This document shows, one piece after another, positions 1 through 10,074 of a stretch of 64,000 nt of DNA (its first letter is position 1; each line of letters starts with the position of its first letter). The DNA comes from Giardia intestinalis. Its lineage: Eukaryota. The stretch is taken from assembly GCA_000002435.2 (NCBI GenBank), contig CM018792.1. One strand, given 5' to 3'. Made by a program: the position numbers and the translations under genes. Below the pieces are notes generated by a model, which did no database searches, was not told the origin of the DNA, and saw only the letters and a list, made by a program, of their open reading frames with translations.

Positions 1-239
1 CTCCTGCATTCTGTGGTGCCGTACATGTGGCGCAGTTCTCCACTCCCTTTGTCGCGCCATCTCCCACCGTGTCCCAGCACAGGATGCACTCCCTTCCCTT
101 CTCTGGTGTTGCAGCCGGGTTCTGGAATATGTACTGGTTATCTACCTTACAAGCAGTGCACACTCCACTACTGGCCTGTGTGCATATCTCACTCCACTAT
201 CACCCATTATCACACATTGTACAGCATTCACTACCTAAG
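1..239 (-). pseudogene. Partial VSP-like unit (N-terminal-encoding part) whose 3' portion lies beyond the window start
   Basis: Bases 1-239 are near-identical to 7600-7780, the 5' part of unit 4 plus the inter-unit junction. They include the junction motif ...cattatcacacattgtacagcattcactacctaagtca and are immediately followed by the stop of unit 1 at 240. This implies the tandem array continues leftwards beyond the window. Confidence 0.35.
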
Positions 240-7776: not shown

Positions 7777-10074
7777 TCACGCCTTCCCCCTGCAGATGAA
7801 CCACCAGCAGAGGAACCCTATGAGACCCCCCACGACGACGACCACAGCGACGGAGATCCCCGCGATGGCCCCCGTGGAGAGCCCGCCCCTGTTGGCGCCA
7901 GAGGACACACACATGCCATCCCTCGGGACATAGCCCTCCTCGCACTCCCCGCAGACGCCCTCTGCGCTGCACCGCATGCACCTCTCTATGTCACAGACAA
8001 TGCACTGGGTGCCGTCCAGGCTGGGTCTCTGGTCTTTATTGGTACATGCCTCACACTTGTTGTCTGCGCTGCAGTGAGAGCAGCCCTGGGCCGGACACAC
8101 ATAGCAGGTGCTTCCAGCCATGTTGGGCTTCTTATTGTCCTCAGCACACACCTCGCACATCCCGTCGATGGCGCAGCTCTTGCACCCGCCGACCGCACAC
8201 AGGGTGCACCCGCTGCCATCCTTGTTGGGCTTCTTCGTCTTGTCGCACGCACTACAGACCGCCGCGGCCATCGCATTGGCGGCTGGCGCCTGCGGGGCCG
8301 CGCACGCCGTGCAGTCTAGCACGCCGACGTACGCCTTGTCGCCCGCGGTCGCTCCCACAGGGTTGCCACAGGCAAGCACGGACTGCTGAGCAGCAGAGTC
8401 CCCGGGAATCTTGAAGTAGCGCCCGACCGGTGTGGTGCAGAACCCACTTGGAGCCGCAGAGCACATGAGGTTGCCAGGAGCCTTCGACACATCATAGCAA
8501 CCACCCATATAGAGGAAGTAGTTGTTGGTGCACCGCGTACATACGCCATCGGCGCAGGTATTACCTGCAAGTGCATTGGTGCACTTCCCATTAATAGGGC
8601 CATAGCCGGCGCCAACACACTTTGAACAGTAAGAGAGCATGCTGCCGTCGTTGCCGACCACGATGGCGTCGCAGGCCCCTGCTGTCCCTCCACATGCAGT
8701 CTCATCTTCACAGGTCTTTGTACATGTGAGGTCGCTAGGTTCTCCGCTGGGTCTGTAGTTGGGCTTACATTCAGTGCATTTGAGGGACCCCACGCCGCCT
8801 GTGCACTCGACACAGCCTGGAATCCCACTTGTCTCGTCATCACAGAGAACGCATGTCTTAGGCGGGCCATCCTTAAGGAAGTACCCCGGCATGCATCTTG
8901 TACATGTGTTGATTTGACCCGCTGTTCCGCACTCTGCGCAGTTTCCTGTGCAGGCCTCGCAGGCGTTTCCGTTGACTTTATACCCGTCGACACAAGCCTC
9001 GCAGGTGCCTTTTGCGGTGCACAGCTTGCAGTTCTGGACTCCGCCCTTACCATTGTCGCCGCACTGCACGCACTTCGAGGCGTCGTAGAAGTGCGTCTTG
9101 CCCACTTTGCACTCGGCCTCATCAACACAGGTCGTTGTCCCATCCAGCTCGTCTCTGACCGTCTTACTACCGCAGTCGGTGCACTTCGGCTTTCCCGTGG
9201 CGTCGTCGTATGCACACGCGGTGCATCCTTGTATCTCACTGCAGGCCTTACAGGTCCAGGTCTTCTTGTCCGCATAGTTACCATTGTCACATCCACCAGC
9301 ATCTACACAAGTGTTACCACCCTTCAAGTACTTCCCCTCAACGCAGGCGGTACACTGAGTCGGAGTATCAGCTGAGCAAGCAGAGCAGCCGTCTCCGCAC
9401 TTCACACATGCACTGCCCTTCGTAACGAACCCTGCTTGACACTCTGTACACGTGGCCGGTCCGCTAGTGCCCGTGTGGGAGCATTCTGAGCATCCAGCGA
9501 CTCCCATGACCCCGTTTCTATCTATAGTATCGGAGCACAAGATGCACTCGCTACCCTTCTCTGATGGTGTAACTGGGTTCTTGAACAGGCCGTTAGCTGT
9601 CTTACACTCAGTGCACAGTCCTCCCTCAGCCTTTGTGCATATCTCGCTGCCGGGCCCGTCGGTTGTCTTGTAGCACCCGCCCATGAAGAGGAAGTACCCG
9701 TCGCCGCACTTTCCGCAGGTGGTTGCCGTCTTGTCGAGGGCAGTCCCGTCTGCTTGGGTGCACCCGGCTGCCGCGGCCTGGGGGGAGCCGGGGGGCCAGC
9801 AGAAGCCGTCGACTGGGACGCCCCCGGTCTTGCACTCGGTGCAGATCTCTGTGCTACCGACCGTCTCGCACTTATCGGTCTGGCAGGTCGCTGTATGGTT
9901 CCCGTCTTGCTGGCAGGTCACTGCAAGCGCGCTCACCACGAACAGGGGTATCAGTAGAAAGGCTGTGGTGTGGACCGGATTGCGTGCAGCGGGTGGGGGT
10001 GCCCCGGCGGCCTCCTCTCTGAGACTCCCACTCCGAGGGTTGCCCCAGGGGGGAGCCCGCTGGCCTGGTCGCAC
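7777..10074 (-). CDS. vsp: VSP-like unit 5: most complete unit (signal-peptide-like segment present) but no in-frame ATG upstream of it
   Basis: The 765-aa ORF has the CRGKA tail, GGCY motifs and many CXXC motifs. Its N-terminus contains a hydrophobic signal-like stretch (TAFLLIPLFVVSALAVTC). However, the track's start is a GTG at 10072-10074, and there is no ATG anywhere in the 200 nt upstream on this strand. The first in-frame ATG is at FLFMGGCY, which lies inside the mature region. Confidence 0.75.
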   Translation of the reverse strand: MRPGQRAPPWGNPRSGSLREEAAGAPPPAARNPVHTTAFLLIPLFVVSALAVTCQQDGNHTATCQTDKCETVGSTEICTECKTGGVPVDGFCWPPGSPQAAAAGCTQADGTALDKTATTCGKCGDGYFLFMGGCYKTTDGPGSEICTKAEGGLCTECKTANGLFKNPVTPSEKGSECILCSDTIDRNGVMGVAGCSECSHTGTSGPATCTECQAGFVTKGSACVKCGDGCSACSADTPTQCTACVEGKYLKGGNTCVDAGGCDNGNYADKKTWTCKACSEIQGCTACAYDDATGKPKCTDCGSKTVRDELDGTTTCVDEAECKVGKTHFYDASKCVQCGDNGKGGVQNCKLCTAKGTCEACVDGYKVNGNACEACTGNCAECGTAGQINTCTRCMPGYFLKDGPPKTCVLCDDETSGIPGCVECTGGVGSLKCTECKPNYRPSGEPSDLTCTKTCEDETACGGTAGACDAIVVGNDGSMLSYCSKCVGAGYGPINGKCTNALAGNTCADGVCTRCTNNYFLYMGGCYDVSKAPGNLMCSAAPSGFCTTPVGRYFKIPGDSAAQQSVLACGNPVGATAGDKAYVGVLDCTACAAPQAPAANAMAAAVCSACDKTKKPNKDGSGCTLCAVGGCKSCAIDGMCEVCAEDNKKPNMAGSTCYVCPAQGCSHCSADNKCEACTNKDQRPSLDGTQCIVCDIERCMRCSAEGVCGECEEGYVPRDGMCVSSGANRGGLSTGAIAGISVAVVVVVGGLIGFLCWWFICRGKA

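Follow-up and report, generated by a model that had tools for sequence, protein, structure and literature searches.

The first 10,164 nucleotides (nt) of a 64,000-nt stretch of Giardia intestinalis DNA (contig CM018792.1; the whole stretch is hereafter the window) carry, on the minus strand, a head-to-tail series of five complete variant-specific surface protein (VSP) units, which the head of a sixth follows. The locus is part of a linear array of VSP pseudogenes (pVSPs) on chromosome 4 of isolate WB (GL50803_0050265-0050274). A flanking open reading frame (ORF) of 442 amino acids (aa) matches GL50803_00111911 of G. intestinalis WB C6 exactly (2.76-Mb contig), and the units correspond in sequence start and length to pseudogenes annotated on NC_051859.1, GL50803_0050269 to 0050274. 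We name them, in transcription order, U5 (10164/9963-7777), U4, U3, U2, U1 and U0. Their boundaries were taken from the ORF listing and a custom alignment; Tandem Repeats Finder returned nothing, the period of ~1.9 kb being above its 500-nt limit. In the ORF listing, long minus-strand ORFs tile 240-10074, all cysteine-rich and ending in ...CRGKA. In a motif scan of the 64 kb, CRGKA-stop sites numbered exactly five; all are minus-strand sites, their stops ending at 7777, 5946, 4029, 2115 and 240. An initial annotation made from the sequence had counted at least six head-to-tail units, each with a CRGKA end; the six units stand, and five such ends are visible, the sixth unit running out of the window. 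The units and their poly(A) signals are as follows.

1-239, minus strand: U0 (pVSP GL50803_0050269), head of the sixth unit, entered by a class-B junction (see below); its frame opens at WSEICTQASSGVCTAC and continues off the window.
240-2114, minus strand: U1 (pVSP GL50803_0050270); ORF 240-2102, 1863 nt / 620 aa, no signal peptide, C-terminus FICRGKA.
2115-4028, minus strand: U2 (pVSP GL50803_0050271); ORF 2115-4016, 1902 nt / 633 aa, headless, C-terminus FLCRGKA.
4029-5945, minus strand: U3 (pVSP GL50803_0050272); ORF 4029-5933, 1905 nt / 634 aa, headless.
5946-7776, minus strand: U4 (pVSP GL50803_0050273); 1788 nt, no ORF start, class-B junction.
7777-9963, minus strand: U5 (pVSP GL50803_0050274); full-length-type VSP body, annotated from the internal ATG of FMGGCY.
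7761-7777, 5930-5946, 4013-4029, 2099-2115 and 224-240, minus strand: identical copies of the extended poly(A) signal ACTTAGGTAGTGAATGC.

The units are VSPs in body and tail. U5, U2 and U4 match the Pfam VSP family (PF03302) at 127-151 bits against a cut-off of 31.4 bits (E-values 1e-36 to 5e-44), and the units hold 11.4-11.8% cysteine, 24-34 CXXC motifs and one or two GGCY motifs each. A hydrophobic transmembrane (TM) segment lies directly upstream of the CRGKA tail, the C-terminal arrangement of VSPs, and the extended poly(A) signal overlaps all five stops. With 12 nt from stop to ORF start, the six same-strand units fall within the spacing of VSP linear arrays (overlapping to about 241 bp). 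Like the downstream members of such arrays, the units behind U5 have no initiator (Inr), proper start or signal peptide, and the reference lists all six units as pVSPs. Two marks of a functional VSP gene, an ATG with a signal peptide and an Inr (YAATGTT) with AT-rich sequence upstream, are both absent from the units. The array extends past the window start (0050265-0050268), since pVSPs 0050265, 0050266 and 0050268 bear the same poly(A) signal as the window units; GL50803_0050266, further along, is frameshifted.

The junctions between units are built to one plan. Each of the five stops reads on as TGA-CTTAGGT-AGTGAAT-GC, which is the VSP-specific extended poly(A) signal ACUUAGRUAGURAAYRY (Rodriguez-Walker et al. 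2022). The five minus-strand copies of the extended signal are the only ones in the window, and minus-strand AGTRAAY sites across the array are confined to these five signals. The ATG of U1-U3 sits inside the signal, 12 nt past the preceding stop, as the initial annotation had recognized. The first ~20 codons of U1-U3 (MLYSDSDSAMWCGGDSDSMRLL) are GTGATA-rich spacer plus a degenerate remnant, and clear VSP homology restarts at LFMGGCY, about 45-75 nt beyond the stop. That interval is the true non-VSP spacer, so that the 12 nt earlier taken for the inter-unit spacer holds only as the distance from stop to ATG.

Two junction classes can be distinguished. Class A, leading into U3, U2 and U1, reads through to FMGGCY, while class B leads into U4 and U0. 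Class B aligns to class A minus ~54 nt; the lost segment is FMGGCYNKDAHPG and the frame is shifted, so the poly(A)-signal ATG in U4 and U0 yields MLYNV-stop. The VSP frame of these two units begins after TGA TAG, in U4 at WSEICT. Because class B aligns to class A with this ~54-nt deletion, all junctions derive from one ancestral truncation. The MLYSDSDS...LLFMGGCY head is also found in the WB array ORFs P0048, P0062, P0083 and P0136 of the 2007 annotation, with a variant in P0059, and occurs 9-11 times in the published pVSP table. Headless units beginning near GGCY or further upstream are likewise found in assemblage E and other isolates. The order of heads in the direction of transcription (leader, B, A, A, A, B, A...) and the annotation order 0050274 to 0050265, which we checked in part, suggest a higher-order block duplication.

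The class-A spacer itself (2039-2098, 3953-4012 and 5870-5929, minus strand) is a run of GTGATA-like hexamers (GTGATAGTGATAGTG ... GGTGATAGTGATAGT). The related array ORF P0062 has one additional 'DS' (6 nt) in this spacer, which implies that changes in spacer length can preserve the frame without any need for selection. Plus-strand ORFs of 112 and 175-179 aa span each class-A junction (2004-2571, 3918-4485 and 5835-6390); these antisense ORFs, although repeated with the units, are probably spurious products of skewed composition.

None of the units opens as an expressed VSP does. U1-U3 start with MLYSDSDSAMWCGGDSDSMRLLFMGGCY..., which is not hydrophobic: the maximum Kyte-Doolittle 12-mer score is 0.52, compared to 2.32 for P0016, an intact WB VSP of 748 aa that has a normal signal peptide and is encoded on the 4.02-Mb contig (chromosome 5). 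U4 has its first in-frame ATG only at codon 405. U5 does carry a hydrophobic segment, AFLLIPLFVVSALAVTC, whose aligned counterpart in P0016 and in a second intact paralogue, P0017 (1.97-Mb contig), is the signal peptide MFQLIPLFVASALMAAC. At the position of their ATG, U5 has GCC (9963-9961). Its frame is open to the upstream TAG (10167-10165), and there is no in-frame ATG from that TAG to the methionine of FMGGCY at codon 161. The 100 nt upstream of U5 are 73% G+C and 27% A+T, and the minus strand of 1-11600 is free of the Inr-like YAATGTT. These observations bear out the initial annotation, which had noted that no unit combines an ATG with a signal peptide, that U1-U3 start at MLYSDSDS, that U4 is without a 5' ATG and that U5 is signal-like and ATG-less.

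Rescue by a spliced-in signal-peptide exon was considered and rejected, because no donor or upstream exon is evident, Giardia introns number just a handful, and both re-annotations, which label such units psiVSPs, class them as pseudogenes (Xu et al. 2020, Sci Data 7:38; Rodriguez-Walker et al. 2022). As judged from the sequence, no unit would be able to yield a surface protein and the array would be coding-silent, since the downstream units are without promoter or Inr, start and signal peptide, and U5 has lost its ATG and Inr.

The bodies of the units form a patchwork. U1 and U2 are 100% identical over the first 1487 nt, and U2 equals U3 save for one patch of 291/294 nt (3896-3606 in U2, 5813-5520 in U3) and two single-nucleotide differences. 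The main blocks are listed here.

3606-3896, minus strand: conversion-like patch; here U3 (5520-5813) departs from U2 and from U1 (1692-1982), with 100% identity on both sides.
2115-2498, minus strand: 3' block of 384 nt, 100% identical between U2 and U4 (5946-6329); U3 (4029-4412) is 1 nt off.
240-375, minus strand: last 136 nt of U1, matching the end of U5 (7777-7912) exactly.

Within the patch, 149 nt of U1/U2 (3715-3863 in U2) equal U5 9452-9600 with one mismatch, and from its outline the patch looks like a classic short conversion tract. Both of its variants have support from the Sanger era. The 2007 annotation had named such ORFs VSP genes, and two of them, XP_001705183.1 (P0136), which matches U3 at 378/379 aa, and XP_001703902.1 (P0048), which equals the U1/U2 head over 193 aa, reproduce the two patch variants, arguing that both are real. 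The identity of the U1 and U5 tails runs on through the class-B junction into the heads of U0 and U4 (269 nt at 96%). Between the U2-like and U5-like parts of U1, the 252 nt at 627-376 reach 80% identity to U2 and 61% to U5 (partial alignments), and the best protein matches of this segment, about 78%, are to other WB VSPs. The segment therefore comes from a third source.

Blocks of 100% identity from hundreds of nt to 1487 nt are far beyond chance, and patchworks with such sharp borders are typical of gene conversion or unequal crossover, which probably produced them here. The initial annotation had proposed just such a footprint of segmental conversion or crossover, and the blocks fit it. Its account of U3 as U2 outside one patch and of the U4 C-terminus as that of U2 and U3 also holds. 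Its description of U1 is right for the first two-thirds, which are U2, and too generous for the C-terminal third, only the last 136 nt of which are shared with U5.

Sharing extends beyond the array. Exact blocks were sought within two protein hit sets, and all such matches are at the protein level. Residues 426-702 of U5 (277 aa) are 100% identical to P0016, so that an intact VSP elsewhere in the genome carries a long segment of one of these units. With P0017 the shared blocks are 37-51 aa long, and P0023, a full-length-type VSP that is N-terminally incomplete, has blocks of 127, 66, 48 and 42 aa in common with U1-U3. A donor cassette is expected to share segments with intact family members, and these units do. 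By length, chromosome and features P0016 is likely to be vsp149 (GL50803_116477), a gene that Adam et al. (2010, PMC2996952) tabulate with TAATGTT and as 'first in a linear array'. Between divergent units, the ratio of nonsynonymous to synonymous divergence (dN/dS) is 0.22-0.28, with dS near saturation. The differences between units therefore arose under coding constraint and not by decay in situ, as would be expected if the bodies had been acquired from functional genes, or traded with them, and had not long decayed in place.

The 5' edge of the array is occupied by the U5 leader and its flank, with a neighboring gene beyond.

9964-10164, minus strand: GC-rich 5' flank of U5, no Inr, no ATG, in frame with the TAG of the upstream ORF.
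10165-11493, minus strand: multi-copy hypothetical gene GL50803_00111911, 442 aa, no Pfam domain.

The same arrangement is found in isolate DH. On DH contig AHGT01000182 (L001), the GC-rich flank is joined to an ATG-less head with 91% identity over window 10890-9500, and past the shared head the VSP body diverges from that of U5. An ATG-less leader common to DH implies that decapitation predates the A1/A2 split and that the body has been exchanged since. The DH homologue (L001 2940-3417) stops early in the TM segment (...AVVVGLPC-stop), without CRGKA, and is followed by GC-rich sequence instead of a further VSP unit; it appears to be the same leader, decayed differently.

Beyond the flank, a block of 64% G+C (10165-~12000) has long ORFs on both strands and contains GL50803_00111911, a gene with three more WB paralogues (113952, 114445 and d114445). 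As the junction of this block with an ATG-less VSP head is kept in DH, the block seems to be a repeat element that accompanies VSP loci. On the minus strand there is no AGTRAAY between the stop of the upstream gene and U5's own signal at 7769, so transcripts of that gene could run on through U5. The TAG of the 442-aa ORF (10167-10165) is in frame with the open frame of U5, which has a 1-in-3 chance expectation; a stop read-through fusion of the two was set aside on this ground and because the signal sequence would be internal. Past the GC-rich block, G+C falls to about 45%, and ordinary-looking ORFs of 1722, 643, 572, 229 and 289 aa occupy 13436-18604 (plus strand) and 18588-24417 (minus strand).

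The anatomy of the array, its mosaic blocks, the shared junction ancestry, the leader conserved in DH, the block held in common with an intact VSP and the identity with annotated pVSPs are together best explained by a pseudogene linear array that grew by duplication and conversion, is coding-silent and serves as a passive store, with a probability of roughly 0.88. The founder would have been a VSP body that had lost its 5' part and began just ahead of the first GGCY; a TM/CRGKA tail, a stop, the VSP poly(A) signal and a short spacer rich in GTGATA would have followed. Unequal crossover would have duplicated it in tandem, a later head deletion of ~54 nt may have given the second junction type (U4, U0), and a multi-unit block was probably duplicated once more. 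Short-tract gene conversion could then have homogenized and patched the units and swapped blocks with intact VSP genes on other chromosomes, and the U5 leader would have lost its ATG and Inr to GC-rich repeat. The likely role would be passive: on an evolutionary timescale the array would store VSP sequence that is exchanged with expressed genes, rather than act as a programmed donor.

Several points weigh against this explanation. The silence of the units is argued from their sequence and by analogy to G. muris. One contested study placed ectopically expressed signal-peptide-less 'VSPs' at the membrane. Exchange with intact VSPs is seen at the protein level and may have run in either direction. 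Finally, all five window units retain open reading frames, which is unusual for long-dead pseudogenes.

The same data could be read as an active donor archive, in which segments are copied in real time into expressed VSPs during growth, encystation or infection, as from Borrelia vls or trypanosome VSG pseudogenes. The sharp mosaic blocks, the 277-aa identity of U5 and P0016, the intact ORFs and the dN/dS of about 0.25 are all what such an archive would leave, and the hypothesis has already been voiced in the literature. However, VSP switching in Giardia is described there as epigenetic or post-transcriptional, with no DNA change, no Giardia expression site is known, the identity blocks fix neither direction nor timescale of exchange, and the frameshift in GL50803_0050266 shows that not every member has been kept intact. 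We therefore consider this unlikely. In its most specific form, double-strand breaks during growth or encystation would trigger short-tract conversion into intact VSPs such as P0016, a mechanism of which we are equally doubtful. If true, it would make chimeric antigens within an infection, extending the repertoire beyond the ~136 intact genes, and selection for good donors would then account for the open frames and the dN/dS of about 0.25.

Less probable still is a role as a source of RNA, in which sense read-through from GL50803_00111911 or antisense transcription would generate double-stranded or small RNAs that silence VSPs sharing sequence with the array. The uninterrupted path from the upstream gene's stop to the U5 poly(A) signal would permit the former; that gene is expressed at low to moderate levels (about 13-25 transcripts per million in most samples), and antisense VSP transcripts are common in WB according to the literature. 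Against this, psiVSP arrays of G. muris are essentially non-transcribed, the expression tables of Rodriguez-Walker 2022 and Rojas-Lopez 2021, as far as they list pseudogenes, gave no values for GL50803_0050269-0050274, and the poly(A) signal that each unit possesses should end read-through.

Translation of U1-U3 from the poly(A)-signal ATG into tail-anchored, cysteine-rich proteins lacking a signal peptide is very improbable. Complete ORFs of 620-634 aa do start at that ATG, the VSP names of 2007 would suit such products, and the membrane localization noted above offers a precedent, but that study is disputed, the ATG is not set in an Inr or any promoter-like context and comes before the point at which the preceding unit's transcript should be cleaved, the same ATG in U4 and U0 gives MLYNV-stop, and pseudogenes is the verdict of both re-annotations. 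We give just as little credence to a mis-join or over-expansion of fewer copies, for although U1-U3 show up to 1487 nt of perfect identity and such arrays broke Sanger assembly (Adam et al. 2010), the window comes from a PacBio chromosome-scale assembly, diagnostic blocks distinguish the units, and independent 2007 Sanger-derived ORFs carry both patch variants (P0136, P0048).

The array as a passive pseudogene store belongs to a published class. Of the vsp sequences of WB, more than half belong to 'linear arrays', in which up to 10 members stand at a mean spacing of 60 bp (Adam et al. 2010, BMC Genomics 11:424, PMC2996952). The downstream members of these arrays all lack an Inr, and the arrays were proposed in that paper to be 'cassettes for recombination'. 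Rodriguez-Walker et al. (2022) classify psiVSPs and propose a sequence reservoir. The array type, these exact units and the silent-reservoir idea have thus all been published, so that the structural reading and reservoir hypothesis of the initial annotation repeat earlier work. Its view that this is an unusual substrate is not supported, the cassette idea dating from 2010 and the units being listed as pVSPs. Added here are the common junction ancestry, the leader without ATG and Inr shared with DH, the exact breakpoints, the 277-aa block in an intact VSP and the dN/dS values. The locus is of value as a clean, well-resolved example, in its breakpoints, junction ancestry and decapitated leader, for long-read or RNA work. 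If the reservoir operates in real time, Giardia would have DNA-level antigenic diversification atop its epigenetic and RNA-based switching, with a bearing on vaccine design based on the VSP repertoire.

Comparison with other silent arrays places the locus more precisely. Borrelia vls, the VSG pseudogene arrays of Trypanosoma brucei and Pneumocystis MSG are alike in having promoterless, partial tandem copies with mosaic sharing with expressed genes. They differ in that their expression site is defined and that conversion during infection has been demonstrated to run one way; Giardia switching is described as epigenetic or post-transcriptional, with neither an expression site nor real-time conversion demonstrated. 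The psiVSP arrays of G. muris are closer, being tandem VSP pseudogenes without signal peptides that show evidence of recombination or gene conversion with intact VSPs and have a proposed reservoir role (Xu et al. 2020, Microb Genom 6:mgen000402). These arrays differ in being nearly all telomere-adjacent, in ending in CRGK and in having been shown to be essentially non-transcribed. Closest are the vsp linear arrays of G. intestinalis, which are the same class of object and include the same annotated loci. With no categorical difference from them, the window array has in common with the published arrays its head-to-tail units, very short spacing, headless members, Clade-I-type sequences, and within-array duplicates and recombination.

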